Below, piece by piece: positions 27,668 through 49,917 of a stretch of DNA of 64,000 nt. This DNA is from Acutalibacteraceae bacterium (GTDB lineage: Bacteria; Bacillota; Clostridia; Oscillospirales; Acutalibacteraceae): contig JAZONH010000044.1 of NCBI GenBank assembly GCA_045654405.1, positions 56,817 through 120,816 on the forward strand, written 5' to 3'. The position numbers and the translations under genes were made by a program. The notes beneath the pieces are model-generated. The model was not told where the DNA came from. It saw nothing but the letters and a program-made list of their open reading frames with translations, and did no database searches. The stretch's first letter is position 1. Each line of letters begins with the position of its first letter.

Positions 27668-27681
27668 ACACGGAGAAACTT

Positions 27682-28116
27682 ATGGCTTTAAAACGAACCG
27701 ACGATTTGATTGAACAATTAAAATCCCAGGAAATTTCTTATGAAGAGTATCTCTCAGACAATGAGGATGCTTTTGAGGTAAATGACATTTCACTTTTCTG
27801 GAAAAAAATCATCAAAAAAAGTAAAATGTCTAAAATTGACATCATAAATAATGCTGATATAGGGTACACGTATTTTTATAATATTATCGGTGGCAAAAGT
27901 GTGCCCGCAAGAGATACAATTATAAAAATATTTTTAAGCATGCCCGTTGGCTTAGAACTTTGCCAGGAAGCACTCAAGATGTATAATTGGGCTTCCCTTT
28001 ATCCTAAAAATAAGCGAGACAGCATTCTTATTTATGCTTTGACCCACAATTTATCCTTATATGAAACCGAAGATATGCTTACGTCACAAGGTGAAAAGGG
28101 ATTCAAATCAATATGA
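27682..28116 (+). CDS. Putative helix-turn-helix protein
   Basis: 144 aa. MSKIDIINNADIGYTYFYNIIGGKSVPARDTIIKI looks like an XRE-type HTH. Its stop overlaps the next start (ATGA, 28113-28116). Confidence 0.5.
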   Translation: MALKRTDDLIEQLKSQEISYEEYLSDNEDAFEVNDISLFWKKIIKKSKMSKIDIINNADIGYTYFYNIIGGKSVPARDTIIKIFLSMPVGLELCQEALKMYNWASLYPKNKRDSILIYALTHNLSLYETEDMLTSQGEKGFKSI

Positions 28117-28850
28117 GCCGATACGAAGAATTCATAAAATCTACCTTGGCGGATGATTACACGCATATTGAATGTGCTAAAGACTGTGATGCTACAAAAA
28201 TTGATATATATACACACAAGGCTTCTCAAAATAAGTTGGTTTGCATATATTCTACAAACCGCAACGACCATATTTTCAGAATATTGAAGGGCATACGTAC
28301 CCCGCACCTTCCCGTTATATACGACATATGCTCATGTGAAAAAAATCTTCTGGTGTTGGAAAGCTATGTGGAAGGTAAAACTCTTGCAGAAATACTTAAA
28401 ACCAATCCACCCACACCACGAAAAGCAGTTGCGTACACTTTACAAATCTGTGAAGCTTTAAAATTTTTGCATTCAAAGCAAATCATGCATAGGGATATAA
28501 AGCCTGAAAATATAATAATTACACCTGATGACACGGCTATTCTTATTGACTTGTCAGCCGCTCGCCTTCTTACAGAAAAAGACCCCGAGCAAGCTGATAC
28601 TGTTAACCTTGGCACAGTCGGATACGCCGCACCCGAGCAATATGGCATACGCCAATCCACACCACCTACCGATATATATGCCGTGGGTGTGCTCCTTAAC
28701 GAGCTTACTGCCAGATGCCATCCCACTATAAAAACTCCCCCGGGAAGGTTGGGCAAAATTATAAAAAAATGTACGGAAACACAAATTTATAACAGATATC
28801 AGACTGTTGAAAAACTTGTTTCAGATCTGAAAAAAATCAGACGATTTTAA
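28113..28850 (+). CDS. Short Hanks-type kinase-fold protein with a degenerate N-lobe (possible pseudokinase)
   Basis: 245 aa. Catalytic loop HRDIKPENIII, DLS in place of DFG, GTVGYAAPEQ. No glycine-rich loop and no obvious VAIK lysine (KLVCIYS). Confidence 0.65.
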   Translation: MSRYEEFIKSTLADDYTHIECAKDCDATKIDIYTHKASQNKLVCIYSTNRNDHIFRILKGIRTPHLPVIYDICSCEKNLLVLESYVEGKTLAEILKTNPPTPRKAVAYTLQICEALKFLHSKQIMHRDIKPENIIITPDDTAILIDLSAARLLTEKDPEQADTVNLGTVGYAAPEQYGIRQSTPPTDIYAVGVLLNELTARCHPTIKTPPGRLGKIIKKCTETQIYNRYQTVEKLVSDLKKIRRF

Positions 28851-28882
28851 GATGCATCCATCGCGATGCATCTTTTTCTTTT
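28851..28882 (+). terminator. Rho-independent terminator
   Basis: GATGCATC-CATCGC-GATGCATC followed by TTTTTCTTTT. Confidence 0.75.
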
Positions 28883-28883
28883 A

Positions 28884-28912
28884 TTGACTTGCACAGTGAA
28901 AAATAATATAAT
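28884..28912 (+). promoter_or_regulatory. SigA-type promoter of the WG-repeat/OmpA lipoprotein gene
   Basis: TTGACT (28884-28889), 17-nt spacer, TATAAT (28907-28912). Confidence 0.55.
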
Positions 28913-28988
28913 ATGTATCATCGGAGGGTATTTATAATACTTATATCCGATGATATACTTGTTATACATTATAAAAGGAGATGTTTTT

Positions 28989-30975: not shown

Positions 30976-30984
30976 TACAAACGA

Positions 30985-31022
30985 GTGGCTTGTGCAACGT
31001 ATGCACAAGCCACCTGTTTTTT
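30985..31022. terminator. Second hairpin between convergent genes, likely the essC terminator and a backup plus-strand terminator
   Basis: GTGGCTTGTGCA-ACGTA-TGCACAAGCCAC. The T-run (ctgtttttt) is on the plus side and touches the essC stop. Confidence 0.55.
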
Positions 31023-34000
31023 ATTGCTGTGTTAAAACACTTTTAATTTTCTGACAGTCATTTTCCTTAATGAAGTAACAATCACCCTGGTCAATGGGTT
31101 TCTTGAACTCACGCATTACTGCCAACGGCAGGTCAACTATCTTCATATTAGAAATGTCATCAAAGTACATAAATCTACGTGCATCACGAATACTCTTAAT
31201 AAGCTCGGGTGACGCATAAGAGATGTTGGTGTTTTCATATCCGCCGAAGATTACACAAACGTTCATATTCTTATACTTGCCAACAATATTCTTATATGCA
31301 TCCATTGCGCCCATATTATTGCTTATACACTGCATTGCATCTGCACTGTTAACAATAAGAACAAGAAGCTTTGATTCCACAAGAATATCATCTTCACCTG
31401 CGGCAAGACGAGAATATCTTGACTGCAGCTCTTCTTCAATAGCCTTAATTGTATCCACACTCTTTTCAGGCATAACCTCATAAGAAACAACGTTTTCTTT
31501 AAACTTCAACGGCATAAGCTTCTTATTTATACCATCTATAATGTGAACCTCTGTTTTGTCTGCATAATACTCATCAAGTGAACTAACAATGTACTTGATA
31601 AAGTTATGCTTACCTGAGCCGTCTCTACCGGTAATTGTAAGGGGTCCGCCCATATTACCAAGCTCAAGCACAAAGGGGCTGACTGACGCATAATCAAGAC
31701 CTGCAACAACTGAGAATGAATCCTGCATATATCCTGTTAGATTCTCTCTTACGAAGCTTTCTGTCAACAACTCGGGTATTACAGGAATCATCTTTGCGAA
31801 TGATTTCTTGTACTTGCTATTTGTTTCTTCAATAAACGTCTTGATTTCTTTTACTCGGTCAATTTCTTTTTCGCCGCGGAATGCAAGGTATGCCTGACAA
31901 TCAAGATGAGTTTTGTCGATTTCAACAATACATCTACCGTGAATGTCATCAATACGCTGGCTACAATGGTCAAACAATGAGCTGTACTCGTTTGAATCGT
32001 TGCAGAACAATGCAATACGTGTTGAGAAATTAGAAAGATATTTATAACCGATTCCCTGTGTATGTGCGTTTGCAATAATAATACTTATACCAACGGATAA
32101 GCCCTCGCGGCAAATTGCCAGAAGCTCGTCATCATCCTGGAAGTAAAGCTCTTTGAGAGCGGTAAGGTTATCTATCATCAATACAATCTGAGGAAGGTCT
32201 GTTCTGCCTGCCTCACGATATGCTGAGAATGAGCTTACGCCCACTGAAAGAAGCTTTTCTTTTCTCTGTGCAATTTCTGTATTAATTAGCTTAAACAGGT
32301 TCTTAAGCTTTTCATCCTCAGAGGATGTTACAACGCCACCAACGTGGTTAAGCTTTTCAAAGTTCTTAAGCACCATTGATGCAAAGTCTATAATGTAAAT
32401 AGAAACCTCATCGGGTGTATACTTTGTTGACAAGCCACGAATGATATTTTGTAAAATGTTGGTTTTACCGCTTTGTGCAGAACCGATAAGCATAACGTTC
32501 TGGTTGCCGATATCGATTTTATAAGTTCCCTGATACTGGTTATCGGGATCATCATATACACCGATTTCAACCTCGATTTTGCCGTTATCAACCTTTTCGT
32601 GATTAACAAAATCTATACATGTATCCAAGGACGGCAAGCAAATATCAGGTAATTTTTCCAAATGCTTGCTTTCAAAATGATTGTGAACATACTGAACAAT
32701 TGCATCAAGCTGTGTAGAGCCACCGTCTTTTTTGTCCTTTTTCTGCACGTATACAGGAACACGCTTGCCTGAATCTGTGATCTGGAAAATTGAGAATTCT
32801 TTAACCTTGCTTTCGTCAGCCTTTTCAGAAGCACCACTGTACGCAGACTGGAACAATTCGAAAATTTCGTTATTACCAACCTGTAAATATGCACGACCGG
32901 GCTCTTTAATTTCAGCCGCAAGGGGTGATTTAAGAACCTCGTTACTATCCTCGGGACCCTGAACCTTAAGACAAAGCTTGAATCTTGAGTTACTCCAGAT
33001 CTGCTCGTTAACCTGACCTGCAGGCTTCTGTGTGGCAAGAATAAGGTGTACACCAAGGCTTCGACCGATACGAGCCGCAGAAATAAGCTCCTTCATAAAC
33101 TCGGGCTGCTCTGCTTTAAGCTCGGCAAACTCGTCAACAATGATAATAAGGTGGGGCAACGGAATTTGTGTTTCGCCCGCTTTGTATTTCTTGATGTATT
33201 TATCAATATGGTTTACGTCTGCATCGGCAAAAAGTCTCTGACGCTTCTGAAGCTCTGCTTTAATTGATTTAAGTGAACGGTTAATTTCCTTACCATCGAT
33301 GTTGGTAATAGCACCCATCATATGGGGTAATTCTCTGAACTGGTTTGCCATACCACCGCCCTTAAAGTCGATAATTACAAAGCCGACCTCATAGGGATGG
33401 AAAAGGGTTGCCATTGAAAGAATGTATGTCTGAAGAATTTCAGATTTACCTGAACCGGTGGTACCTGCAACAAGACCGTGGGGGCCGTGTGCCTTATCGT
33501 GCAGGTCAAGATAAACCGTACCTGTTTTTGAAACACCCAAGGGTGCTGACATAGACTTAAATACCTGTGAGGTCTGCCAACGCCTGTCAAGGTCAATATC
33601 ATCAACCGCAAGAATATTGAGCATTTCAAACAAGGATATGCTCTTTGTAAGCGAGCCTTCAAGTGAAATCTCCTCTGTATAAACAGGTGCAAGAATACGT
33701 ACAATATCAGCCGCGGATGCATTGTCAATCTTAGGATATGTGAACGCCTCTGTTTTGCTTCTATCCTCGGTATGTATAAGGTTTGCGGTGCTGTTGCCCT
33801 GAATATCGATTATATATGAGCAGCCCATAGGAACGTCCGCTCTTGTGTTACCGAAGAACACAAAAATCACGCCTAAATCCTTAGCTTCGTCGATGAATCT
33901 TGAAATAGGATGATTCTGGAAGCCGTATTCATCGTGGAAGAATACCACGATACGATTTTCAAATTTCTTTTCCTGCTTTCTGAAGGAAAGCTCTTTGTAA

Positions 34001-35529
34001 AGGTACTCGAAAACAAAGTTCTTGCTTTCATCGTCTGTAACAATAAGACGGCTACCCAATTCCTCAGAATATGCGTGGGGTAACATACGCAACCAACGCA
34101 CGTTTTTAGCGTGTCTTTTTTCTGCTACAAAAATCATCTTAACGTCGCTATGATACTGTCTTGCGGCAATATCAACGATAAGATTCTTCATTATTTCAAA
34201 GCGCTCGTATTTGTCACCGATAACGCCGATTGCGTTTGCCTCTTTAAGGTCACACACAATGGGAGCATTGCCGATATATTTGTAATCCTCGCTGAGCTTT
34301 TCGGGCATCTGCTGAAGGTCGTCGCCTACCTCAAGCTTTTCCTGCTTTTTGTAATTGATTTCACGGGTTGCCTCAACAAGACCGTTACCCAATCTTACAC
34401 AAAGGAAATCCTCGTCTGTGGGACGTCTGTCAAACAAATCTGAGGAGAATGCGCCTAAGCGCTGTCTTTCAATATCCTGAGAAACATAAATATCTTCGCG
34501 AACCCTATGCTCCTCAGCACGGCACTGCTCAATTTCCTTGCGCTTCTGTGCTATATACGCATTGTAGGTATCTCTGCGCTCCTTAAGACTGTTTTCGTAG
34601 TCCTTTTGTCCCTCTCGTTTGTTTAAAAATACAGTGGCCAATGATATACCGATGGAAAAAAGGCTAACCACTATCATAAGGGGATTTACTACTACCATCA
34701 TAAGTGATGATACTACCATACTTAATGATGGCAACAACTTTGTAAGAAGATTACCCTTCTTCGGCTTCTGGGGCTTTGCCGAAGGATCAAGAATTTCAAT
34801 TTTTTCGTCGTTTATAACAGCCTTAATTCGTGTGTTTCTGTTGAATTTAGGATAAGAATTCTTTTCAGGCGAATCCTTGAATGATATAGCGTTCAAGCCC
34901 ATATCATCCCTTATCTGAGTCCAGATTTTACCGTCCTTGTAATAGAAGAAATAATCCGAAAGAGAGAAGAAGTCGCCGTTTTTGATAACCTCGTTACCCA
35001 CGGCTTTTTTACCATTATGGTAAACGCCGTATTGGCTATAGCCTATTTTAAGCTGATAGCCATCGCCTCTTTTTACCAATGTAATAGCATCGTTTTTAAT
35101 AAAGGGACTTGCAAGCACAATATTGCTATCTGCTCTTGCGCCGATAGAAATGGTGCTCAAGCTTGCAACGTCAAGAACTCGCTCGTACTTAAGCTTACCA
35201 TTATCAAAGTCGATAAGGAATTCGATAGTGAAGGCAGTAATATCAGAATCCTGATACTTAACGTCGATAATATCGCCGTTTCGTAAGGATATATTCATAA
35301 GCTTCCTTACGTCGCCAACCGAAAGATATAAATTGTCTGCACAGAATACAGACCACTGACCATTATTTTTTGTAAATAATAATTCAATGGGGCCAAAAAA
35401 CAATTTTTTGTGCAAACGAGCCTCGCAATCAACACCCGTACCTATTTTATATTGGTTACATTCAGGTGTTAATTCAACCTCTTTATATAAATTCTGGTTT
35501 GAAATTATAATTTTATATCTGCTATTCAC
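31021..35529 (-). CDS. essC: Type VII secretion (T7SSb-type) FtsK/SpoIIIE-family ATPase EssC
   Basis: 1502 aa with a GTG start 7 nt after AAGGGGGG. Two N-terminal FHA-like beta domains. Two TM segments (LLPSLSMVVSSLMMVVVNPLMIVVSLFSIGISLATVFL). Three P-loop modules (GLVAGTTGSGKSE with IIIVDEFAEL; LIGSAQSGKTN with VLMIDNL; ITGRDGSGKHN with LVLIVNSAD). Preceded by a YukD-like gene. Confidence 0.9.
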   Translation of the reverse strand: MNSRYKIIISNQNLYKEVELTPECNQYKIGTGVDCEARLHKKLFFGPIELLFTKNNGQWSVFCADNLYLSVGDVRKLMNISLRNGDIIDVKYQDSDITAFTIEFLIDFDNGKLKYERVLDVASLSTISIGARADSNIVLASPFIKNDAITLVKRGDGYQLKIGYSQYGVYHNGKKAVGNEVIKNGDFFSLSDYFFYYKDGKIWTQIRDDMGLNAISFKDSPEKNSYPKFNRNTRIKAVINDEKIEILDPSAKPQKPKKGNLLTKLLPSLSMVVSSLMMVVVNPLMIVVSLFSIGISLATVFLNKREGQKDYENSLKERRDTYNAYIAQKRKEIEQCRAEEHRVREDIYVSQDIERQRLGAFSSDLFDRRPTDEDFLCVRLGNGLVEATREINYKKQEKLEVGDDLQQMPEKLSEDYKYIGNAPIVCDLKEANAIGVIGDKYERFEIMKNLIVDIAARQYHSDVKMIFVAEKRHAKNVRWLRMLPHAYSEELGSRLIVTDDESKNFVFEYLYKELSFRKQEKKFENRIVVFFHDEYGFQNHPISRFIDEAKDLGVIFVFFGNTRADVPMGCSYIIDIQGNSTANLIHTEDRSKTEAFTYPKIDNASAADIVRILAPVYTEEISLEGSLTKSISLFEMLNILAVDDIDLDRRWQTSQVFKSMSAPLGVSKTGTVYLDLHDKAHGPHGLVAGTTGSGKSEILQTYILSMATLFHPYEVGFVIIDFKGGGMANQFRELPHMMGAITNIDGKEINRSLKSIKAELQKRQRLFADADVNHIDKYIKKYKAGETQIPLPHLIIIVDEFAELKAEQPEFMKELISAARIGRSLGVHLILATQKPAGQVNEQIWSNSRFKLCLKVQGPEDSNEVLKSPLAAEIKEPGRAYLQVGNNEIFELFQSAYSGASEKADESKVKEFSIFQITDSGKRVPVYVQKKDKKDGGSTQLDAIVQYVHNHFESKHLEKLPDICLPSLDTCIDFVNHEKVDNGKIEVEIGVYDDPDNQYQGTYKIDIGNQNVMLIGSAQSGKTNILQNIIRGLSTKYTPDEVSIYIIDFASMVLKNFEKLNHVGGVVTSSEDEKLKNLFKLINTEIAQRKEKLLSVGVSSFSAYREAGRTDLPQIVLMIDNLTALKELYFQDDDELLAICREGLSVGISIIIANAHTQGIGYKYLSNFSTRIALFCNDSNEYSSLFDHCSQRIDDIHGRCIVEIDKTHLDCQAYLAFRGEKEIDRVKEIKTFIEETNSKYKKSFAKMIPVIPELLTESFVRENLTGYMQDSFSVVAGLDYASVSPFVLELGNMGGPLTITGRDGSGKHNFIKYIVSSLDEYYADKTEVHIIDGINKKLMPLKFKENVVSYEVMPEKSVDTIKAIEEELQSRYSRLAAGEDDILVESKLLVLIVNSADAMQCISNNMGAMDAYKNIVGKYKNMNVCVIFGGYENTNISYASPELIKSIRDARRFMYFDDISNMKIVDLPLAVMREFKKPIDQGDCYFIKENDCQKIKSVLTQQ

Positions 35530-35542
35530 TTTTTCGCCCCCC

Positions 35543-35797
35543 TTACTCAGTAAAATTTATTACGCTACCGTTGCGTATGCCGTATTCCTTCAGGGTTTTG
35601 TTACCTCGGAGCAACGCAATGGGATTTTCTGCCTTAAGATAGCAATTTTTAATATCCGCCGTATCAATACCCAATTGGTACGCCTGATTAAGAGCAATTG
35701 TAAGGTCGTTGCCCGAAATATCCAGCGGCACCTCTAAATCTGCCGTAAAGCCTCTGTTTAAAATATTAAAAATAATTATTGCCGTGTCCTTAGCCAT
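35543..35797 (-). CDS. esaB: EsaB/YukD-like ubiquitin-fold T7SS accessory protein
   Basis: ATG at 35797 after GAGGGGGA. 84 aa. The pattern DLEVPLDISGNDLTIALNQAY...LLRGNKTLKEYGIRNGSVINF matches EsaB/YukD. Its stop is embedded in the essC RBS. Confidence 0.75.
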   Translation of the reverse strand: MAKDTAIIIFNILNRGFTADLEVPLDISGNDLTIALNQAYQLGIDTADIKNCYLKAENPIALLRGNKTLKEYGIRNGSVINFTE

Positions 35798-35832
35798 AAT
35801 ATTTCCCCCTCGCAATTATGCGATTTTTTAAA

Positions 35833-36891
35833 TCATATAAGTAAAAATGTTGTTTTCTGTACGCCCTTTTGACTTGAAAAATCATCCGGCTTCATTTTTG
35901 AATATTCTGAAAAATGCTCAATATATTCATTGACCGCAAATTTAATAGTAACATCTGATGAAACCAGAGCGTTTGCGCTCTTTCTGTCAAAGTCATTACA
36001 AACAAACATATACTTTTCTGCATTCAGGCCGTTTATGTTGGAAGCAAGTATATTCGTTGCATAAACTGAACCCATATCCTGCTTGGTAACAATAATTACC
36101 CTGTCCGCTACATTAAGCAACGTTGCCTTAAAATCATCAAAAGCGACATCTGCATCCACAACGATGTAATCATACTCTTTTGATTTTTTAGCCGCGGTTG
36201 CAAGCTCAGAAAACACCATGTAGCTTATACCCAAAGACATCAATGATGCTTTGAACGGCGGTATATAGCTGAAAAGCTCTTTTCTTACTACGTGCTTTAT
36301 TTCAGAGAACACAAGTGATGAATGATTAGTAAATCTTGCGTACACGTCCAGCGCCGTTATAGGTGTTTTGTTGTCGAGCAAATGTTGAAAATGCTGCAAG
36401 CGGTCTGCGTTGATATACAAAACCTTTTTATAGTTTTTTGTAAGACAAGCACTGATGCCCAAAGCAACGGTTGTTTTACCTGTACCGCCGCAAGCAGAGG
36501 TCACAAGTATAATCTGCGGTTCCTTTTTTTCACCGCTCTTAACCCTTAAAGAGCCCTGACTTTTACCAATAATTTCAGTAAAAATCTCTTTTATGCTTGT
36601 ATATTTATATATATGGCTTACGTTAAGTTGAGCGGTAGATTCCTCAGTGTATTGCTCAGTCATAATAAAAATCTGACCAATATCGTGCCTCAACACACTG
36701 TCATCAAACAAATCCTCAGAAACAATAAGAATTTCTGCCTTTTTTGGCTCAGAAAAATATTGATTAAAATAACCTTCCTCGGTTATAACTTCAATATCTA
36801 CCTTTTCAAAAAACTCTTCTACAAACTTATATTGTATGGGAACTATATAATCCCTGTCGTAATCAGCAATTATAATTTTGGGTTTTGCCAT
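35833..36891 (-). CDS. TadZ/CpaE-like protein: an N-terminal receiver-like domain plus a ParA/MinD-type P-loop ATPase domain
   Basis: 352 aa. The N-terminal alternating beta/alpha pattern KIIIADYDRDY...AEILIVSEDLF is receiver-like with degenerate acidic residues. P-loop ILVTSACGGTGKTTVALG, with Cys where the deviant-Walker-A signature Lys sits. DYIVVDAD looks like Walker B. Confidence 0.6.
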   Translation of the reverse strand: MAKPKIIIADYDRDYIVPIQYKFVEEFFEKVDIEVITEEGYFNQYFSEPKKAEILIVSEDLFDDSVLRHDIGQIFIMTEQYTEESTAQLNVSHIYKYTSIKEIFTEIIGKSQGSLRVKSGEKKEPQIILVTSACGGTGKTTVALGISACLTKNYKKVLYINADRLQHFQHLLDNKTPITALDVYARFTNHSSLVFSEIKHVVRKELFSYIPPFKASLMSLGISYMVFSELATAAKKSKEYDYIVVDADVAFDDFKATLLNVADRVIIVTKQDMGSVYATNILASNINGLNAEKYMFVCNDFDRKSANALVSSDVTIKFAVNEYIEHFSEYSKMKPDDFSSQKGVQKTTFLLI

Positions 36892-36914
36892 GCCAATTTA
36901 TACCCCTTTGTAGT

Positions 36915-37847
36915 TTATTCTATAACAAATTGGAAATCGCTGTTTGCCAAGCGAACAATATCGCCGTTCTTAATATAATACGGCTTATTAGGCTCTAGCT
37001 TTGCGTTGTTAATATACGTACCATTAGCGCTTTTAAGGTCGGTAATTGTGTATTTGCTCCTATATTTTTCTATACGGCAATGGGTTTTGCTTATCATACC
37101 GTTAAAGGTTACAACACCATCTGCCGCGCCCGAGCTTCTGCCAATAAGGAAGCTATCTTTATTAATAACAAATTCCGTCGGTGTGGGTGAATTCATCGCA
37201 ACAAGCCTTGCTGTACGATCCAGAATGGATTTACGTATCGGGCTTTCAGGTCTTCTGTACGTGCTGGTTGCAGAGCCGCCCGTTTTACCGATGCCGTTAT
37301 AAACATCCTCCAACGTTTTCGTGCCGTCGGATAAATCCGACTGAAGTCTTAAAAGCTCAGGCGTAGCAAAGCTGTGGAAAGCGGAAATTGTTTTTATTAA
37401 CGTAGTTCTTAATTCACTTTCAAAGGAAGCGTAATCAGTAAACATACCCTTCTCTACGGGAACATAAACAAGATTAACCTTGTAGGTGTTTGCATCAACA
37501 AAAATATGCTCAAATGATATATCGATATTTTCACAGCTCAAAAAGCCGTTATTCTTTACTGACAGAATTGAAGCAAATAAATTCGAAACCACAGTAATAA
37601 AATTATCGGGCGAAATGCCTGACATCATACTGAGAAGCGGCTTGTTTGAATTAACGATATAGAACAACTGTATTTTGCCGTTATATTTCATCTTCATACA
37701 CCTTAAAAGGCTGTTGCTGCCCTGGCTTTGCAGCACCTTATATTCGGTTGTCAAAAACAGACTGTTGTCATTTAATATGTATGAAAAATTAGATCCACAC
37801 GCTAATTCTTCAAGCAATCCTTTTTGAACTAATGAATTCATAAACAT
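36915..37847 (-). CDS. FHA-domain protein with a conserved N-terminal domain (DUF6382-like), paralog of 48083-49822
   Basis: 310 aa. The C-terminal FHA has canonical GR / SKTH / SANGTYIN residues. The ATG at 37841 (MNSLVQ..) is better spaced from AGGGG than the one at 37847. Confidence 0.75.
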   Translation of the reverse strand: MFMNSLVQKGLLEELACGSNFSYILNDNSLFLTTEYKVLQSQGSNSLLRCMKMKYNGKIQLFYIVNSNKPLLSMMSGISPDNFITVVSNLFASILSVKNNGFLSCENIDISFEHIFVDANTYKVNLVYVPVEKGMFTDYASFESELRTTLIKTISAFHSFATPELLRLQSDLSDGTKTLEDVYNGIGKTGGSATSTYRRPESPIRKSILDRTARLVAMNSPTPTEFVINKDSFLIGRSSGAADGVVTFNGMISKTHCRIEKYRSKYTITDLKSANGTYINNAKLEPNKPYYIKNGDIVRLANSDFQFVIE

Positions 37848-37918
37848 ACCCCTACATCATACTTTTTGTTTATCTGAAGTAAAAACACAAAAATGCCCTT
37901 ACTTCAAATAAACCTTCT

Positions 37919-37945
37919 CCCCGGTGCAGGCTGCCCTGCACCGGG
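37919..37945 (-). terminator. Strong GC hairpin in the only large gap of the operon, possibly a partial terminator or processing site
   Basis: CCCGGTGCAGG-(4 nt)-CCTGCACCGGG. On the minus strand it is followed by GAGAAGGTTTATTTG, and then by a second stem GAAGTAA..TTACTTC. Confidence 0.4.
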
Positions 37946-37964
37946 TTTGGTTTAGTTAATTATT

Positions 37965-43900: not shown

Positions 43901-44285
43901 CTGTCATTACCACGTCGATATTTGCGTTTGCGGAAGCAATAGCCTCGCTGATATTTTTTGTTGCGTAGCCGTCCTTTGTAACGGTTGCTTCAACAGTAAG
44001 ACCATCTGCATAGTCAGCAGATGCAAGAATTGCTACTGCACCGTTGGCGTTTGTTGTCGCAGTGCCGCTTGTAACCTCGGCATCTGCGCTATCTTTAATA
44101 GTAAACGATACTGTGGCACCGCTTACCACTTCACCGCCGTCTTTAACGGTTACGGTAATAGCTTCGGGATAGTCCGTAGTTGCTGCTGAAACAGGAATAG
44201 CAGAAACGGGAACCATACCGAATACAAGTAACATTGTAAGTATTGCTGCTAAAACTTTTTTAGTAGCATTACCCATTTTACTCAT
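37965..44285 (-). CDS. Giant (2106 aa) Ig-like-repeat cell-surface protein with a Sec signal peptide and a C-terminal TM anchor
   Basis: Signal peptide KKVLAAILTMLLVFGMVPVSAIPVSA|AT. At least 8 modules bounded by D-x-x-(A/S)P-x-x-x-(V/I)-x-Y and containing T(I/V)TE.NF and Y..D.(A/S).N motifs. C-terminal WGVVGGTLGAAALVILLIAL + KKRKKKDSK. No LPXTG. Confidence 0.8.
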   Translation of the reverse strand: MSKMGNATKKVLAAILTMLLVFGMVPVSAIPVSAATTDYPEAITVTVKDGGEVVSGATVSFTIKDSADAEVTSGTATTNANGAVAILASADYADGLTVEATVTKDGYATKNISEAIASANANIDVVMTANEITGIVVTPLNTQCKPDNATGKAQLFDAVGVQGTMEGDEVFYQIDGSEATKTVPQISKPGTYKVMVTVKRAGYTDFVTEVTAKIIDITFTAKTTTGVFTGEPQELLKETNFTGLTKYYGYSFDFYIGEEKTTTIPEKTDVGEYAVKVVGKSSFEGLSEIEKTFTATITPAQLNAGVVTLAPYSGAYDANSHAAVEVKPAEGKSLKQAEYSVDDGATWTQAVPVIKDAGTYPVKVRVELDDKNYVATEYDVTAMITAGDREFKFDNSTFNANAASKSNAEIVSMVGDVITINKAYNFAATAEEQAKTEKVAYKVEVVGADGKATIDSKGLLVVTEPGTFKVTATIAATSNYAEKEISHELNVRVVPKDTNGDRVAFVDFGETDEIDYFVNKNSNVISDIAATTTIKASDDSNITYKIFAVESDKPFGGIACDATTGKVYISNIDSFIAYLNRANGLLKIKVVATKNEGKIAISDSDYYVINIRYCNASESPFTLAMSLTGTGWINSEVEVTPKAGYTIAKAQKYGQDTTIISHEKIEIADDEAQIKAALDSAFTSSVKFGDDGQNKRSVYLCDEEGYIYAPVDVKININGVLQDLKIDRHNPDAASMKIEYSTEKDSIGDIIKTLFFKDTVTVTLEATDKLSGIQRFVCKYGDKEIPVENFEYLEDGKTARATATITIAEGEEYKSKVSFEAYDRAGNVTKKTGDDTVIIDYVSPEMSVEYINTVNAVTDEETSVKTYYFNESAPLVYKVKVKETNGFKENGDIRVLKDGAEVADVQIDYAREGEFDVFTVTVPSTVENEGVYTVEASYKDKSTNVMKVDDKEIDVFVSDQMVIDVTDAEIVFTYEEAEHNNANSICEDYMVKLTVTEVNFDAAGFVVNVDAKDINGKDVTVDKLNAYIQNPDNWTKAPADANKYECVLTYDVAGVLPDAVYNIEFVYTDLAANVITVNSDTFVIDTVAPTAPKIGYETPVAEVIAKVATLGLAEDEVKEILYKFFKAPTKITIASTDATSGMQKFVLEYNREDGASEKNKEQIIIDNVKPVQDKNNKHIFEATVVLPKSMTMAEFDQLRGSLTAYAVDNHGIKSETVTDDGTVTVVDNIAPEVSVSYNAEHREVNNKHYYNDTVIGTITATEANFYEEDVKLVVTKDNVEIEAPAITWTQATEADGTVIADTFKGEFQLPATEDHSADGDYVVKVTYTDKSTNEAVAYESEVIVIDTTAPVINVAYANTDVKNILPDPHVEADRKYFDDTQVATITITEHNFNADEVQLPILEQDVSGEDVDQTRTESEWSSDGDVHTMTITYPGSANYTFDIDYTDLAENDAADYAPDYFTVDKTAPVLSVKQINNVATTILNNITFGYFGGAKDKNAKAEIEVTVEDDISFADIVTATYEKTEGTSTVNKDAEVQTVNADKIKISDDGKTATTTFKLPVTVLKTDKKNMHGAVDFVAKDRAGNSSADNAETKSVTGVIVDNISPKAKIEYSKPYATANGISYYNGEITGTITVTEANFDNPEDFYVAYSKDGAKNKRIELEWTHKSVNTHVATFTLTADGDYILTAKYADKATNNMADYKSNQLTIDTKINAPVITFQGNSNGGLGFDDEVIPGVKFEDDNYKSYQITLTRTRFDEKDVDVKDKFIGNRVVINANGGSGTFNTFEKIRDNDGVYTLTVKMTDMVDHSSTTSRTFVVNRFGSVYVYSDALIDLINDRYVQDVNDDLVITEYNANKLKDGSLKVEISRDGRPVDDVVSSNAPGKNTGWYEYAHTINAENFNAEGLYKITVSSTDEVNNDSQNKEDKNTFNKKFAQVKDVLWFKVDKTLPSITNISFNDEAKNKDNKYTEINAEGTEVEFTVYDAIGIAKVEVIIDGNSKTYEGEALGDDINNFVGKIELAESKNQQKVVIKVTDLSGRVLDTSKTDEAKDNIPDSFTGSVLVSTNFFVRFWNDQPVFWGVVGGTLGAAALVILLIALKKRKKKDSK

Positions 44286-44300
44286 GTTTTTCTCCCCTTT

Positions 44301-44762
44301 TTATTTTTTTCTTTTTATTTCATTATAAATGTTTCCGTTTAATACGCCATGAAGACCCAAAGAAACAATCATTAAAAATAACAAAACGTAAATCACATAA
44401 GTATTATTATACTTTGTGAACATAAGCGCAATAAATGATATTACACTTGCCAAAAACACACCGTCGGCAATTGAGGCATACATATTTTTAAAAAACCTCA
44501 ACACACCGGGTATTTTTCTCTTAGGGATCTCATCCCCATGCTCCTGCTCGTGCCATTTTTTGTATTTCCATATCATTAACACAAAAAACACCAAGCTGAA
44601 TAAAAATCCTGCCCAAAAAACCGAGCCCACTATAATTACGGATATGTTGCTCTGAGCCTGCACCGAAAAAGGCATTGCCAGAAACGATGCACCTAAAAGC
44701 ACTGTAAAAAACAGGTACAAGCTCATTAACCGCCTGATTGTGGATTTTTTAATCCGCTTCAT
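44301..44762 (-). CDS. Small 4-TM membrane protein, unknown function
   Basis: 153 aa with four hydrophobic segments. Its start overlaps the upstream stop by 4 nt. Confidence 0.65.
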   Translation of the reverse strand: MKRIKKSTIRRLMSLYLFFTVLLGASFLAMPFSVQAQSNISVIIVGSVFWAGFLFSLVFFVLMIWKYKKWHEQEHGDEIPKRKIPGVLRFFKNMYASIADGVFLASVISFIALMFTKYNNTYVIYVLLFLMIVSLGLHGVLNGNIYNEIKRKK

Positions 44763-45547
44763 TCAATCACCTCGGCAGTATGAATCAGCATAACGTCATC
44801 AAGCGCCGACATTTCCTTCATAGGCACGAAGCTGGGCTTTTCTGTTGATTCATCGGTGAGAAGTGCGGTTTCATTAAGCGCCGCAGTCTCATCCCACGAA
44901 TCGTTATTATCCTGTACGTATAATGGTGCTGTCTCATCAAGAGGTGCGGTTTCGTCGCTCGACATAGCAGGCCTTGACTGCACGGGAACGTTGAGAGGTG
45001 CAGTTTCATTCAAGGGTGCGGTTTCGTCGCTACCGGCAAAATCCCTTGCGCTTACAGGAACGTTAAGAGGAGCCGTCTCGTTAAGGGGTGCAGTTTCCTC
45101 ACTACCTGTAAAGTCCCTTGAAAATACGGGAACGTTAAGGGGTGCAGTTTCATTGAGGGGTGCGGTTTCCTCCGACCCTATGCCTGCGCTGCGATTGTCC
45201 GCCGCAACGGGCATTGCAACCGGCTGAGGTGCTCTTTTGGCTGCTTTCTTTGCCTCTTTAGGCTCCTTTACAGCCTGCTTAGGTGCAGGTTTAGCTACAC
45301 TCTGCTCCATTGTTGCCGTAAGCTTACCGCGATTCTGGTTAACCTGGCTTGACTTATGTTCCTTTTTACCCGACTTTTCATTAAATTCACGCATCTGAGC
45401 AATGGATTTACGAGCAGTTTTACCGGATAAATCACCTATTACACTAGGGATTTTGAATTTTATAAATAGTATTACTGCTAAAAGGAGTGCAATCCCCGCA
45501 AAAACGAAGGAGATAATTGAAATTATTGATAGTACTTCTGCTGCCAT
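44759..45547 (-). CDS. N-terminally membrane-anchored protein with a tandem ETAPL-repeat tail
   Basis: 262 aa. TM VLSIISIISFVFAGIALLLAVILFI followed by KFK, which suggests a cytoplasmic C-terminus. A Lys/Pro-rich linker. Ten ETA(P/A/L)L motifs. Confidence 0.7.
   Translation of the reverse strand: MAAEVLSIISIISFVFAGIALLLAVILFIKFKIPSVIGDLSGKTARKSIAQMREFNEKSGKKEHKSSQVNQNRGKLTATMEQSVAKPAPKQAVKEPKEAKKAAKRAPQPVAMPVAADNRSAGIGSEETAPLNETAPLNVPVFSRDFTGSEETAPLNETAPLNVPVSARDFAGSDETAPLNETAPLNVPVQSRPAMSSDETAPLDETAPLYVQDNNDSWDETAALNETALLTDESTEKPSFVPMKEMSALDDVMLIHTAEVIE
44852..45175 (-). repeat. 72-nt (24-aa) in-frame tandem repeat, about 4.5 copies
   Basis: SEETAPLNETAPLNVPVFSRDFTG / SEETAPLNETAPLNVPVSARDFAG / SDETAPLNETAPLNVPVQSRPAMS / SDETAPLDETAPLYVQDNNDSW / DETAALNETALLTDE. 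Confidence 0.85.
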
Positions 45548-45550
45548 AAT

Positions 45551-47284
45551 TTATTTCTCCTCCTTGAATTTATATTCGTTTTCTATCTTAACTTTATAGT
45601 TTTGGTGTTCACTGATGATTTTTTGTTTCATCTCTTTAGTGTACTTGTTGGAACCGCCATCCTTAACATCATTAGCCATTTCGTATACCCTGTCTAATAA
45701 GTCTATGAGTGTTCCTTTTTCAACATCAACACCGCTAAATTTTTCCTTGCAACTATTAAGCAGGCAAAATACTGCATAATAATAGCTAACTCTTTCGTAG
45801 TTACCTATTGTTGTATCATCTTCTATAGAATCAAGAGCTTTGTTTATGCCAACAAATAGCTTTTCACACTCATCCGTTGTAAGGTCGTACTTTGTATCCT
45901 CCGGTATGTAATGCTTCTGGAATTCACAAATTTCATACAAACTGTTTTCGTAGTATGACGGGGTATAGTTTTCGATTCCTTTGTTACGGTCAAGATATAT
46001 TATAGCTTTGTTGCATCGCTCTATAACACCATCATTTAACTGACCATCTTCATTTATGGAAACATAATCGAAATAACAAAGTATTGCCATTCGGAAATTG
46101 ATATCTGCGTAAACATCAGGCTTAGCTTTTTGAAGTTCAGCGCTATGGTTTTTCATTATATTACCATCTTCGTCTTTATTTCCGCCGTGGTAAATTCCTT
46201 CAAATTTAGCAAGGTCAACAGAGGTAAAGCCTTTTCCTTCGGAAACCTTGTCTTCATAATATTCTACTAATTTGAGATAAGCCTCTTCACGCTCAGGATA
46301 TAAAATAACCGCCTTTTGATACAAATCCAAATCCCCTGTACGATTAACATAAGCATCGTAGTTGTTTTCGTTGATTGCCTTTGCAGCCAATGCAGTACCA
46401 AGACCCGAAAAAGCCATAATTACGCTGAGTACGAACGGCACAACCGTAGCTATAACCTTACGCTTCTGCTTCTTCTTGTATCCTGATGTAATAAGGTCGG
46501 GATGCTCAAGGTCATAAATAAGGTCTGCGCAGCTCTGATATCTGTTTTCCTCGGCGGGCTGCACGCACTTGTCAATAATAAGCTCAATACCTTCTGAAAG
46601 GTTGGGGTTAATCTGTCTTACGGGGATATAACCATCACCCATTCTGGGGTCAACACCTGTAAGAAGGTTGTGCATTGTCATACCCAATGAGTAAATATCC
46701 GACCTGGGTGTTGTCTGGCCGTTGTATGCCTCGGGAGGAGCGAAGCCACGTGTACCAAGAACCTTTGTATCTGAAAGATTCTGCTCCTTATACTCACGTG
46801 CAATACCGAAGTCGATAATCTTAATGTTACCCTCGGGCTTAAGCATAATGTTAGCCGGCTTCATATCGCGGTAAACGATGGGACGGGGCTTCTGTGAATG
46901 GAGGTAGCTGAGCGCGTCACAAACCTGCTTAGCCCAGTCAATAACCTTTTCTTCGTCCTGAACGCCGAACTCTTTTAAGATTTTATCTAAAGATTCGCCT
47001 TCGATATAGTCCATAACAACGTAGATTGTAATACCGTTGTCAATGATATCAACTATACGGGGCAATGCGGGGTGGTCAAGGCGCTTCATAAGGTTGGCCT
47101 CAGCAAGCAAGCTGTTTACAACAATTTCATCGTTAGCGCCTGTTCCCTTTTTTCTGATTTCCTTAACAGCCCACTGCTTGTTAAGACGACGGTCCATCGC
47201 AAGGTAAACCGTGGACATACCGCCGCGTCCTATTTCTTTAAGTACTTCGTACTTACCATCAATTATTGTTCCTATCTCTGTCAT
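45551..47284 (-). CDS. Transmembrane Hanks-type Ser/Thr protein kinase
   Basis: 577 aa. GRGGMSTVY, WAVKEI, YRDMKPANIML, DFGIAREY, GTRGFAPPEAY. One TM (VIATVVPFVLSVIMAFSGLGTALAA). A ~270-aa helical extracytoplasmic domain. Confidence 0.85.
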   Translation of the reverse strand: MTEIGTIIDGKYEVLKEIGRGGMSTVYLAMDRRLNKQWAVKEIRKKGTGANDEIVVNSLLAEANLMKRLDHPALPRIVDIIDNGITIYVVMDYIEGESLDKILKEFGVQDEEKVIDWAKQVCDALSYLHSQKPRPIVYRDMKPANIMLKPEGNIKIIDFGIAREYKEQNLSDTKVLGTRGFAPPEAYNGQTTPRSDIYSLGMTMHNLLTGVDPRMGDGYIPVRQINPNLSEGIELIIDKCVQPAEENRYQSCADLIYDLEHPDLITSGYKKKQKRKVIATVVPFVLSVIMAFSGLGTALAAKAINENNYDAYVNRTGDLDLYQKAVILYPEREEAYLKLVEYYEDKVSEGKGFTSVDLAKFEGIYHGGNKDEDGNIMKNHSAELQKAKPDVYADINFRMAILCYFDYVSINEDGQLNDGVIERCNKAIIYLDRNKGIENYTPSYYENSLYEICEFQKHYIPEDTKYDLTTDECEKLFVGINKALDSIEDDTTIGNYERVSYYYAVFCLLNSCKEKFSGVDVEKGTLIDLLDRVYEMANDVKDGGSNKYTKEMKQKIISEHQNYKVKIENEYKFKEEK

Positions 47285-47296
47285 TTACCCCTCACC

Positions 47297-48067
47297 TCAC
47301 GACATTGTTTTAACAAGTAAAACTGAAATATTATCACGCTCACCACGTGATTTCACCAACTCAATAACGTGCTTTGCGTTGCTATGCATAGCCTGCTTAT
47401 GAGGAAGGACGCTTGCATCAAAATATTGTGCCAGCTCCTGGGGTGAAACCTGATGCCTGAATCCATCAGAGCAAAGCAGGTACACACCATTCTGTGTTTC
47501 GCCCACAATAACCTCAGGTTCAACGTCTCTTGAAGCACCAACGCATTGAAGAAGAAGATTTCGGCGACTGTCAACCCTTGCTTGCTCGGGAGTCATATTG
47601 CCGCGCCTTACTTCTCTTTCTACAAAGCTCTGGTCAATTGTCAGTTGCTTGAGACCCTTGTTTACGTAATATGCACGGGTGTCACCTACGTGAACGATAA
47701 GGTATTTACCCTCTACAAAAAGCATACCGGTAAAGGTTGTGCCCATATTCACGCCGATGCTTGCACCAAATTGTGAAATCTTAACGTTAAGCTGCTTGAG
47801 CATATGAGTCCACTTACCGCCGATAACCTCTAAATTGAGGTTACCTAATTCGTAGGGAAGCTCTTCTTCAAACCATCTTGAAAATTCTCTGATAACGGTA
47901 GCGCTTGCAAGCTCACCCTTCGCAAGTCCGCCCATACCGTCACAAACAACGGCAAGCATAACCTGCTTGTTATCCTTGTCATAAACAGCCTGCTTAACCA
48001 AAAGGCTGTCCTGATTAGTTTTTTTAACGATACCAACGTCGGTATCTGCAGTTGCTATATAATGCAT
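47297..48067 (-). CDS. PP2C-family (PPM) Ser/Thr phosphatase
   Basis: 256 aa. TDVGIVKKTNQDS, VVCDGMGG, VGDTRAY, LCSDGF, DNISVLLV. Confidence 0.85.
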   Translation of the reverse strand: MHYIATADTDVGIVKKTNQDSLLVKQAVYDKDNKQVMLAVVCDGMGGLAKGELASATVIREFSRWFEEELPYELGNLNLEVIGGKWTHMLKQLNVKISQFGASIGVNMGTTFTGMLFVEGKYLIVHVGDTRAYYVNKGLKQLTIDQSFVEREVRRGNMTPEQARVDSRRNLLLQCVGASRDVEPEVIVGETQNGVYLLCSDGFRHQVSPQELAQYFDASVLPHKQAMHSNAKHVIELVKSRGERDNISVLLVKTMS

Positions 48068-48082
48068 TTTTTAACCCCCTGT

Positions 48083-49822
48083 TTATACTTTAAACAAAAA
48101 GTCTTCATTAGCCAGTGTAATAGTGTCACCATCAAATATTTCTATTTCACAGTTGGGCATTACCATTCTGCCGTTAATGTAAGTCTTGTTTTTGGAATTC
48201 AGGTCTGTAATAAAATATCTGTTATCTCTGATAACAATATCCGCGTGGCTTCGGCTGATAACGTTACTGTTGCTTACGAAATAATCAACGTAACTACGCT
48301 CCTTGCCGATTCTGAAAACGGGCTTTGATATTTTAACAACCTCACCATTGAAAATACGCTTAAGAGTGGGATATTTAATATACTCTTTTGCCGGTGCAGG
48401 ACCATTACTATATGTATCCATTGGTGCAAAGGGCTCATCTGTAAGAAGATCTGTTTTGTCCTCTTCAAAAGCACCCGACATTACTGCAGGCTGGGGAGCC
48501 GGAGCAGGCTGCACGGGCTGGGGTGCGGGCCTTGCCGCAGGCTGGGGCGCCGGAGCAGGTTGCACGGGTTGGGGTGCGGGCCTTGCCGCAGGCTGGGGAG
48601 CCGGAGCAGGTTGTTTTATCTGATTAATCTCGCTTGAGTGAAGCTCATAAGCGGGCTTCATAGCAGGAGCATTGCCTGTAGGCTGTGCAACAGGGCGTGC
48701 GGGCTGGGGAACCGGAGCGGGTTGCACGGGCTGAGGTACCGGAGCAGGTTTTACTACAGGTGCCACCGGTGCTGCAACAGGCTGCGGTGCAGGAATGGGT
48801 TTAGCTACAGGAGCTTCGACGGGCTGAGGTGCAGGAACGGGCTGAGGCGCCGCTACAGGCTTAGCCACAGGAGCCGCAGGCTCATCTTCGATTAATAATC
48901 CTGTATTATCTTCCTCATCAACAATAGGAAGAACGGGCTGAGCCACAGGAGCAACGGGTGCTGCAACAGGCTGCGGCGCAGGAATGGGTTTAGCTACAGG
49001 AGCTTCGACGGGCTGAGGTGCAGGAATGGGCTGAGGCGCCGGTACAGGCTTAGCAACAGGTGCTTCAACAGGCTGGGGTGCCGGTGCAGGCACAGCCACA
49101 GGGACCTCGGGCTCATCCTCGACCAATAAAGCTGTGTTTTCTTCCTCGGCGAAAAGATCATCATCCATCATATCAGCGATATTTATTTCAGGCACGTTAT
49201 TGATATTAACCTCTTTAATAACGGGCTCCGGAGTAGGCTGTACAACTTTCTTGGGAGGATGACTCTTGTTAACAGCGTCAACCACCTTTGCATCCTCTGC
49301 TAAAATATATTGTTCAACAAGCTTATAATCATACTCTGCCATTGACTTAAGGAATGCACCGAATCGCTGGGCATATTCCATATCTGCCTCACGGAAGGGC
49401 TTAGCCATTGCTGAGATTGCTGATAAAAAGTTTATTAAATTATTTGCATTAGCTTTTGCCGTAGCAGGAACGTATGCCAATTGTAAATCCCAGGTTGTTT
49501 CATTTATGAAAATATATCTGAAATCCAACAACAGTTTATCGGGAGATAAGTTCAGTGACTTAATGTCGCGTACAATAGCCGCCGCCTGCTGCATAAGAAG
49601 CAAAAACTGAACCTTAGACATGGGCTCTCTGAGTCTCTCGCCTAAGGGAGTGCCATTCATACAAACAAACTGTACACCACTGCTCTGAACAGATGAACCA
49701 AGAATACCCTTTATGGGAGTCTGGGATACATACTTTGCTTCACCATTGATAAAGCCATCTGTTGGAGCAAACTCTAAAGAAAGAATCGTTGAATTTCCAT
49801 TTTTAGATATGTTAAATTGCAT
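48083..49822 (-). CDS. FHA-domain protein: DUF6382-like N-domain, a long Pro-rich repeat region, and a C-terminal FHA
   Basis: 579 aa. First gene after the consensus promoter. The FHA has GK (not GR), SRSH and SKNKTYING. Three acidic E(E/D).T.LL..DEP motifs. Confidence 0.75.
   Translation of the reverse strand: MQFNISKNGNSTILSLEFAPTDGFINGEAKYVSQTPIKGILGSSVQSSGVQFVCMNGTPLGERLREPMSKVQFLLLMQQAAAIVRDIKSLNLSPDKLLLDFRYIFINETTWDLQLAYVPATAKANANNLINFLSAISAMAKPFREADMEYAQRFGAFLKSMAEYDYKLVEQYILAEDAKVVDAVNKSHPPKKVVQPTPEPVIKEVNINNVPEINIADMMDDDLFAEEENTALLVEDEPEVPVAVPAPAPQPVEAPVAKPVPAPQPIPAPQPVEAPVAKPIPAPQPVAAPVAPVAQPVLPIVDEEDNTGLLIEDEPAAPVAKPVAAPQPVPAPQPVEAPVAKPIPAPQPVAAPVAPVVKPAPVPQPVQPAPVPQPARPVAQPTGNAPAMKPAYELHSSEINQIKQPAPAPQPAARPAPQPVQPAPAPQPAARPAPQPVQPAPAPQPAVMSGAFEEDKTDLLTDEPFAPMDTYSNGPAPAKEYIKYPTLKRIFNGEVVKISKPVFRIGKERSYVDYFVSNSNVISRSHADIVIRDNRYFITDLNSKNKTYINGRMVMPNCEIEIFDGDTITLANEDFLFKV
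48490..49145 (-). repeat. In-frame Pro-rich coding repeats
   Basis: A 51-nt unit in ~2.4 copies (48490-48612). A 189-nt unit in 2 copies (48768-48956 and 48957-49145) whose first ~104 nt differ at only a few positions. Confidence 0.8.
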
Positions 49823-49888
49823 AAAAATTCTCCTTTATCCAATTTTGAATATATTTTCTCAACATAATTTTTCATTATAATCGTTTTG

Positions 49889-49917
49889 ATTATATTCCCA
49901 AACAAAAAATTTGTCAA
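49889..49917 (-). promoter_or_regulatory. Consensus SigA promoter of the FHA...EssC operon
   Basis: The minus strand reads TTGACA (49917-49912), a 17-nt spacer, TATAAT (49894-49889). A ~60-nt leader ends in AAAGGAGAA before the ATG at 49822. Confidence 0.65.

Follow-up and report, generated by a model that had tools for sequence, protein, structure and literature searches.

A 64,000-nt stretch of contig JAZONH010000044.1 from an Acutalibacteraceae bacterium (the window, which is all of this genome that our analysis covers) carries a minus-strand operon of ten genes, labeled J1, F, D, H, m, I, J2, V, B, and C in transcription order. The last two encode a true EssC and its YukD partner, and the locus is best read, from its gene content and sequence motifs, as a type VII secretion system (T7SS) in which a T7SSf-type core (F, J2, V, B, and C) is combined with a module like that of T7SSe and T7SSj (J1, D, H, m, and I). 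We consider it probable that this is a functional variant, neither T7SSa nor T7SSb, whose esxA island has been lost or moved and whose substrates are encoded elsewhere. As the original prediction had it, the operon is noncanonical and has a built-in module of FHA proteins, a kinase, and a PP2C phosphatase. The same prediction knew of no such module as an integral part of a T7SSb locus; T7SS subtypes so equipped were, however, named in 2024 (PMC11217815). The architecture as a category is therefore already known and is largely covered by those named subtypes, although the exact combination of a T7SSf-type core with a J1-D-H-m-I module is not among them.

Relation to published T7SS subtypes

Garrett, Higginson, and Palmer (2024) define subtypes T7SSc to T7SSj, which include membrane kinases, PP2C phosphatases, DUF6382-FHA proteins, giant Ig-like proteins, and TadZ-like ATPases, and which are without EssA, EssB, and EsaA (PMC11217815). 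In their Tsx nomenclature, D is the kinase, F the PPM phosphatase, J the DUF6382-FHA protein, H a protein with a transmembrane (TM) segment and a disordered region, and I a giant Ig-like protein with a signal peptide as well as a TM segment at the C terminus; TsfV is the TadZ-like ATPase. Phospho-regulation and the analogy to the type VI secretion system (T6SS) are already discussed in that study.

The T7SSf subtype is described with components A, B, C, F, J, and V, with "no kinase" associated, and with a TsfJ that has two TM helices (PMC11217815). The window has in common with it the PPM phosphatase, the DUF6382-FHA protein, the TadZ-like ATPase, the YukD-like protein, and an EssC without the FHA motifs GR and SxxH, and a tsfV-type V lies between J2 and B. 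Both the window and T7SSf systems of the Clostridium acetobutylicum/C. felsineum type belong to the Clostridia, and in the window's relatives esxA and polymorphic toxin genes follow essC as they do in T7SSf. The EssC FHA profile is also matched: GR, SxxH, and NG are present in 0, 0, and 88% of TsfC proteins, as against 98, 99, and 90% of TseC and 100, 100, and 100% of TsjC proteins (Table S1, PMC11217815), and the EssC of the window has no GR and no SxxH but keeps NG. The window differs from T7SSf in that it adds a kinase, a second J, H, the four-TM protein m, and the giant I, and has no esxA.

A related locus, L062, has a short form, F-J-V-B-C, that lacks both the kinase and I and matches the published T7SSf layout (PMC11217815); toxin modules and two WXG100 genes come after it. 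Its EssC is 66% identical to that of the window and its components are 48 to 75% identical, the same distance as is seen for long forms. This short form, the TsfC-type FHA profile, and the J2-V-B-C block together point to a T7SSf core to which a module has been added.

The other half of the operon is shared by description with T7SSe and T7SSj. T7SSe comprises two WXG100 proteins (A1 and A2), YukD, an EssC with phospho-competent FHA domains, D, F, a disordered H with one TM segment, I, J, and the one-TM protein TseK, and T7SSj comprises A, B, C, a D with TPR, F, I, J, and K (PMC11217815). Kinase D, phosphatase F, DUF6382-FHA protein J, and the giant I are alike in both, and H, which we liken to TseH by description, is alike in T7SSe. 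The small protein m is without a counterpart in the published component lists. A literature search found no later papers on T7SSe, T7SSf, or T7SSj. Five RefSeq EssC accessions of the window's family (from C. nigeriense, C. sartagoforme, C. folliculivorans, C. fungisolvens, and C. polynesiense) are missing from the TscC to TsjC lists of PMC11217815, and ten metagenome EssC clusters have no RefSeq accession, so the subtype is not settled by accession matching.

Distribution and plasticity of the operon

There are >1000 strong homologs of the window's EssC, the top 120 of which are 63 to 91% identical and mostly metagenomic. Scanning species-representative genomes with the J alignment gave 55 loci, and the gene order reported in the original prediction recurs among them: in 45 of them the gene for I is immediately upstream of J2-V, a kinase gene separating I from J2 in two of the 45; about 22 show F-D-H, and J1 can be seen in 12, where enough of the flank is covered. 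The combination of the T7SSf-type core with the added module recurs in about 45 species-level loci. Two more long-form loci were found via EssC look-ups. Genomes of Oscillospiraceae, Acutalibacteraceae, and Lachnospiraceae, as well as those of C. nigeriense, C. sartagoforme, C. folliculivorans, and C. polynesiense, share the order (J1)-F-D-H-(m)-I-J2-V-B-C. Operons of this type are common among Clostridia of the gut and rumen, many of them uncultured, and occur in a few cultivable Clostridium species.

In evolution, the accessory module has been plastic. Much larger kinases (974 to 1434 aa) replace the giant I in some related loci, and elsewhere a 630-aa kinase lies between I and J2; the loci concerned are L015:2896-5800, L036, L045:12149-15400, and L031/L040.

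Organization of the operon

The ten genes, their order, coordinates, and lengths, and the promoter are all as first described. The minus-strand open reading frames (ORFs) of 579, 256, 577, 262, 153, 2106, 310, 352, 90, and 1502 aa are all intact (Table 1), and the gaps between them, from J1 to C, are 15, 12, 3, -4, 15, 117, 23, 17, and 13 nt. The gap range of -4 to +35 nt given earlier, apart from the one gap of 117 nt, holds if YukD starts at the ATG used by its 84-aa homologs, in which case the V-YukD gap is 35 nt; YukD is probably an 84-aa protein with this start at 35797, judging from those homologs. The sole 12/12 promoter match within 30.5-50.3 kb is TTGACA-17-TATAAT at 49917-49889, and the gene upstream of the operon is closed by a hairpin and a T-run. 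A promoter-like 11/12 site is also present at 36896-36869, immediately before V.

The I-J2 intergenic region retains 79% identity across 4 species in which synonymous sites are near saturation. It contains two hairpins, in which 5 base pairs are kept despite changes on both sides, and a GC-rich stem at 37920-37945; an Rfam search found no family in the window. The hairpins may act as an attenuator, a processing site, or a stabilizer that fixes the ratio of the two halves of the operon.

Table 1. Features of the T7SS operon and its flanks in the window
Feature	Position	Strand	Basis or remarks
Four-gene cluster convergent with essC	26138..30917	+	Pfam
Terminator-like hairpin, 13-bp stem, directly 3' of essC	30984..31014	-	
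C, EssC, 1502 aa, two degenerate FHA domains, 2 TM, three P-loops	31021..35529	-	
B, YukD/EsaB ubiquitin-like protein	35543..35815	-	PF08817
V, ParA/MinD-type ATPase, 352 aa, N-terminal TadZ-like receiver-like domain	35833..36891	-	
J2, 310 aa, DUF6382 (putative kinase-like fold) and FHA	36915..37847	-	PF19909, FHA
I-J2 intergenic region, 117 nt, two conserved hairpins	37848..37964	-	
I, giant surface protein, 2106 aa	37965..44285	-	Hydropathy, Big_13, Y_Y_Y
m, 153 aa, 4 TM	44301..44762	-	Four hydrophobic segments
H, 262 aa, N-terminal TM anchor and acidic disordered tail	44759..45547	-	Hydropathy, motif count
D, membrane Hanks kinase, 577 aa	45551..47284	-	Pkinase E 1.1e-50
F, PP2C/PPM Ser/Thr phosphatase, 256 aa	47297..48067	-	NF033484, PF13672
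J1, 579 aa, FHA and DUF6382	48083..49822	-	Profile matches
Sigma-70-type promoter, TTGACA-17-TATAAT	49889..49917	-	Direct reading; predicted
GDSL/SGNH hydrolase-FHA-Hanks kinase fusion, 702 aa, no TM	50049..52157	-	Pfam; directly upstream, own terminator, outside operon

EssC, YukD, and the ATPase V

Profile searches support the domain calls of the original prediction throughout (FHA, PP2C, Hanks kinase, ParA-type ATPase, YukD, and EssC). The 1502-aa protein matches the EssC equivalog TIGR03928 at 1136 bits (cut-off 778) over residues 225-1496, compared with 64 bits for FtsK and 29 bits for TraB, and is thus EssC rather than a DNA translocase. All three of its expected P-loops were located (GTTGSGKS at 689, GSAQSGKT at 1016, and GRDGSGKH at 1301), although the third is degenerate. 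Its YukD partner, encoded directly upstream, scores 31.5 bits against PF08817 (cut-off 27). V matches AAA_31 (E 1.7e-12) and CbiA and has the Walker A motif ACGGTGKT; the match of its N-terminal region to TadZ-like_ARD is sub-threshold (E 0.07).

The FHA domains of EssC match Pfam weakly (E 0.007). In the window and 40 relatives they read "IGT" and "IG[SAT]", have no GR and no SxxH, and keep "YGVYxNG". Without GR and SxxH, the kinase is unlikely to act through these domains, and any phospho-switch must run via the separate DUF6382-FHA proteins. The ligand of EssC FHA domains, thought earlier to be unresolved, is known for canonical T7SSb: in Bacillus subtilis, the YukC pseudokinase domain and YukD bind the FHA domains of YukB, YukC doing so at FHA2 (PMC12637312).

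FHA proteins, phosphatase, and kinase

J2 has a DUF6382 domain (PF19909, 35.8 bits) and an FHA domain (E 3e-16) in which GR, SKTH, and NG are all intact; most J2 homologs have GK instead of GR. In J1, the FHA match (E 1.7e-14) is accompanied by a DUF6382 match of 24.2 bits at full length and 27.2 bits with the N-terminal 200 aa alone, and its FHA loop motifs (GK, SRSH, and NK) are partly degenerate. Neither protein has a hydrophobic segment or TM helix by hydropathy. J1 also carries the motifs EEENTALLVEDE, DEEDNTGLLIEDE, and EEDKTDLLTDEP, and similar acidic TxxL motifs are present in seven of nine J1 homologs, the J1-linker type being "DDEATGLL".

Pro-rich PAPQPVEAPVAKP-type repeats at J1 residues ~230-470 account for its 579-aa length. 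The nine J1 homologs from other loci are 228 to 436 aa long (some are cut by the locus edge) with 2-8% Pro, and the repeats look specific to the window's lineage. Acidic TxLL motifs are still shared between J1 and these homologs, as the count of seven in nine shows.

The DUF6382 domain may be a truncated kinase-like fold. A full-length AlphaFold2 model of J2 (predicted local distance difference test score [pLDDT] 86) matched only FHA domains in Foldseek. When the DUF6382 N-domain was modeled alone, with lower confidence (pLDDT 71), weak matches were to PknB, the STK40 pseudokinase, and an EssB-like TraF N-domain (E 0.03-0.1, TM-score up to 0.5). A profile of the J alignment searched against PDB sequences likewise found FHA domains only, and no EssB or YukC. 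TsfJ is called kinase-like in the published Foldseek table (PMC11217815).

The phosphatase F matches NF033484 (Stp1_PP2C, E 1.5e-49) as well as PF13672, and D has a kinase domain at residues 12-256, a single TM segment at ~277-295, and an extracytoplasmic domain of ~280 aa. The catalytic motifs of both appear intact by eye: the metal-binding motifs NQD, DGMGG, GDTR, and SDG in F, and the VAVK Lys, the YRD catalytic loop, and DFG in D. Residues 301-577 of D have no Pfam match, TPR included, at E≤5.

Envelope proteins H, m, and I

H is anchored by a TM segment at residues 11-29, which is followed by a basic juxtamembrane motif and an acidic cytoplasmic tail. The tail carries ten [DE]TxxL motifs (ETAPL), compared with 0.87 ± 0.92 in shuffled sequences (at least 10-fold enrichment), and H has a conserved C-terminal IHTAEVIE. 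At least one [DE]TxxL is present in 28 of 32 H homologs, and the C-terminal HTxEVI is near-universal. The acidic TxxL motifs of H and J1 are candidate phospho-docking sites. FHA domains often prefer phosphothreonine with a hydrophobic residue at +3, and this makes the motifs plausible FHA ligands.

The only Pfam matches of m are weak (8xMP, E 0.001), and about 20 loci have a homolog in the same place. The giant protein I has a Sec signal peptide, TM segments at 12-30 and 2079-2097, the latter a C-terminal anchor, and a basic tail, and its gene evolves faster than any other in the operon, with a ratio of nonsynonymous to synonymous substitution rates (dN/dS) of 0.15-0.21. It had been described as an Ig-repeat protein. 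Ig-like hints were found, in that Big_13 matches four stretches at 26 bits (sub-threshold, with a cut-off of 27), Y_Y_Y also matches, and a VxDxxAPxxxV boundary motif occurs seven times, but self-BLAST detected no internal repeats. Big_13 and the boundary motif suggest that the extracytoplasmic region is built of Ig-like modules.

The missing esxA island

No WXG100 gene had been noted in the operon, and this extends to the whole window. ORF inspection found no WXG100 ORF in the operon or the window, a hidden Markov model (HMM) built from 37 esxA homologs of related loci had a best E of 5.4 against the six-frame translation of the 64 kb, and tblastn of the window with the relatives' EsxA, Lap, and LXG proteins gave no match. 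The lack of WXG100 is not, however, a trait of the system. By the family HMM, esxA lies ≤1 kb from essC in 27 of 39 distinct related loci, and ≤4 kb away in four more, and in most relatives a lone esxA comes immediately after essC, with tandem copies in some loci. In the closest esxA-bearing relatives (L002, L004/L007, and L006; EssC 90-91% identical), esxA (97 aa, PF06013) begins 271-311 nt after essC and is followed by genes for a YwqH-like protein, a DUF5344 protein, an LXG-WHH toxin, a SUKH immunity protein, and a DUF4176 protein. LXG, reverse-lipase, and Lap modules all occur after esxA in relatives. Candidate "reverse" lipase-type toxins (Phospholipase-like/Mbeg1-like, ~550 aa) are encoded at L063:19259-20917, L064:16424-18115, and L001:23243-24497; beside them are small genes of the Lap-like type and esxA in one to three tandem copies, and the loci carry LXG toxins too.

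By blastn, the homology of the window to L002 and L003 ends at 31017, at the essC stop codon, and the terminator-like hairpin that follows essC marks the end of synteny with relatives that have esxA. The same junction, without esxA, is found in L005, which belongs to a different, sister species with an EssC 92% identical; there essC meets a convergent OmpA-like cluster, as in the window. Because another species shares it, the esxA-less junction is real and inherited, and an assembly artifact was rejected on the same ground. A mobile element was also considered, but the flanks consist of housekeeping genes only, with no integrase or transposase. The machinery is under strong purifying selection (dN/dS about 0.04). 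Between the window and L005, dN/dS values are 0.052 (EssC), 0.039 (kinase), 0.047 (J2), 0.034 (V), and 0.009 (YukD, with 0.009-0.019 overall); they match those of the esxA-bearing pair L004/L006 and are approximate, as dS is near saturation (about 1; 0.9-1.0 for window-L005). The absence of WXG100 appears from these sequence comparisons to be a quirk of the lineage and not a property of the system, and most likely the esxA/toxin island has been lost or moved, with WXG100 and substrates encoded elsewhere in the genome.

A proposed model for phospho-dependent assembly

No match to EssB/YukC, EssA/YueC, or EsaA/YueB was found when the ten products were scanned with Pfam and NCBIfam profiles at E≤0.01, in agreement with what had been judged by eye. 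Canonical T7SSb systems (Staphylococcus aureus ess and B. subtilis yuk) resemble the operon in having an EssC with two phospho-blind FHA domains and YukD/EsaB, and, through the window's relatives, in EsxA, LXG toxins with Lap partners, and immunity genes. By analogy, the T7SSb membrane roles would be covered by J with its kinase-like domain, by H and m as anchors, and by I as a wall-spanning component.

We propose that kinase D would sense an envelope or contact signal via its extracytoplasmic domain and phosphorylate Thr in the acidic TxxL motifs of H (the ten copies and HTxEVI at its C terminus) and of the J1 linker, which the PP2C phosphatase would reverse. The FHA domains of J1 and J2, in which the Ser and His of SxxH are kept, would dock on those phosphothreonines, and docking would bring the kinase-like DUF6382 domains to the membrane. 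Since the YukC pseudokinase and YukD clamp the YukB FHA domains in B. subtilis, we propose that the DUF6382 domains together with YukD would clamp the phospho-blind FHA domains of EssC, taking the role of the EssB/YukC pseudokinase of T7SSb and licensing assembly of the EssC channel. V may place or nucleate the complex, and I may take the wall-spanning role proposed for EsaA.

Such a circuit resembles those of the T6SS (PpkA/PppA/Fha1 of Pseudomonas aeruginosa and PpkA-TssL-Fha of Agrobacterium tumefaciens), where a membrane Hanks kinase, a PP2C phosphatase, and an FHA adaptor reading a phosphorylated membrane component lead to assembly. The T6SS is an unrelated machine, and homology is limited to the signaling domains; in contrast to it, the FHA adaptor here shares one polypeptide with a putative kinase-like domain, and TxxL motifs in multiple copies are its candidate targets.

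Alternative explanations

The overlap in parts (kinase, PPM phosphatase, DUF6382-FHA protein, giant Ig-like protein, and TM protein with a disordered region) raises the question as to whether the locus is simply a member of the published T7SSe or T7SSj. We think this unlikely, because TseC and TsjC keep the phosphothreonine motifs GR, SxxH, and NG at 90-100%, whereas the EssC of the window and of 40 relatives is without GR and SxxH, and because neither subtype is described with a TadZ-like ATPase such as V; the five RefSeq EssC proteins absent from the published lists speak against it as well. T7SSe moreover has a WXG100 pair and the one-TM TseK, where the window has no WXG100 and the four-TM m, and where its relatives mostly have a single esxA, with some tandem; T7SSj has no H and a TPR kinase, and its FHA motifs are kept at 100%, whereas the window has an H-like protein and a D without a TPR match. 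We give almost no credence to a DNA-translocation or conjugation-type apparatus. An FtsK_SpoIIIE domain and a ParA-family ATPase are indeed present, but the EssC equivalog far outscores FtsK and TraB, the partner is YukD, the relatives carry WXG100, LXG, and Lap islands, and the window has no relaxase, integrase, or type IV secretion genes.

The missing island admits two further explanations. The operon could be an orphaned remnant, decaying after loss of its esxA, toxin, and immunity genes, as the absence of esxA, Lap, and LXG from the window and the end of homology to esxA-bearing relatives at the essC stop codon would suggest. However, the ten ORFs are intact behind a perfect promoter, and the junction is shared with L005 at a dS of ~0.9-1.0, yet dN/dS is 0.01-0.05 and no higher than in esxA-bearing pairs; such low values argue against decay, and we regard it as quite unlikely. 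Alternatively, the system may work independently of EsxA, secreting other cargo or serving the giant protein I. Purifying selection without a local esxA in two species is consistent with this, and T7SSi is another subtype in which no clear esxA was found (PMC11217815). Nonetheless, we judge it very unlikely, as the window is only 64 kb of the genome and most relatives keep esxA near essC; I has its own Sec signal peptide, and EsxA is regarded as essential in the T7SSs studied (PMC11217815).

Several observations weigh against the functional T7SSf-like system with a T7SSe/j-like module that we favor. The 64 kb contain neither a WXG100 gene nor a substrate gene, so that function hinges on genes outside the window, and with dS close to saturation the selection estimates are approximate. 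T7SSf is stated to be kinase-free with a TsfJ of two TM helices, whereas the window has a kinase and its J1 and J2 have no TM helix; the assignment of a T7SSf core draws on gene set and FHA motifs. As for the mechanism, phospho-docking is inferred from sequence, the FHA arginine is replaced by Lys in J1 and in most J2 homologs, J1 has NK for NG, and the Foldseek matches behind a kinase-like DUF6382 are weak and come from the model of lower confidence.

Neighboring genes

The operon is flanked by two further sets of genes with signaling domains, both of which are possibly associated with it. Directly upstream is the gene for the 702-aa hydrolase-FHA-kinase fusion (Table 1). A related T7SS island has at its edge (L063:21361-24491) the genes for a PARG-GDSL-Zn-ribbon-kinase fusion of 871 aa and for a Zn-ribbon-kinase of 848 aa. 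On the other side, the cluster convergent with essC encodes proteins of 509 aa (Zn-ribbon, TM), 144 aa, 245 aa (short, kinase-like), and 655 aa (WG-repeat/OmpA lipoprotein). A convergent cluster lies at the same junction in L005 (16934-20930) and is 73-80% identical, and an OmpA homolog (50% identical), together with Zn-ribbon, kinase, and PP2C genes, bounds the toxin island on its far side in L060:6135-12000 and L062:20734-24430. This OmpA/Zn-ribbon/kinase cluster may serve T7SSs of this family as a recurring module with an accessory or sensing role.

Implications

The operon does not define a new category of secretion system, as the exchange of EssA, EssB, and EsaA for kinase, phosphatase, and FHA proteins and a giant Ig-like protein is already published (PMC11217815). 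What it adds is that a T7SSf-type core and a T7SSe/j-type kinase/H/I module coexist as one conserved ten-gene operon, which softens the published statement that T7SSf is kinase-free. If the machine in the lineage of the window and L005 were truly WXG100-free, EsxA would not be universally required, and the phospho-scaffold of kinase, H, and J, or the giant protein I, might replace its activating role. The TxxL arrays in H and in the J1 linker are concrete and testable candidates for phosphosites and FHA ligands, and C. nigeriense, C. sartagoforme, and C. folliculivorans, which carry the operon, are possible experimental models.

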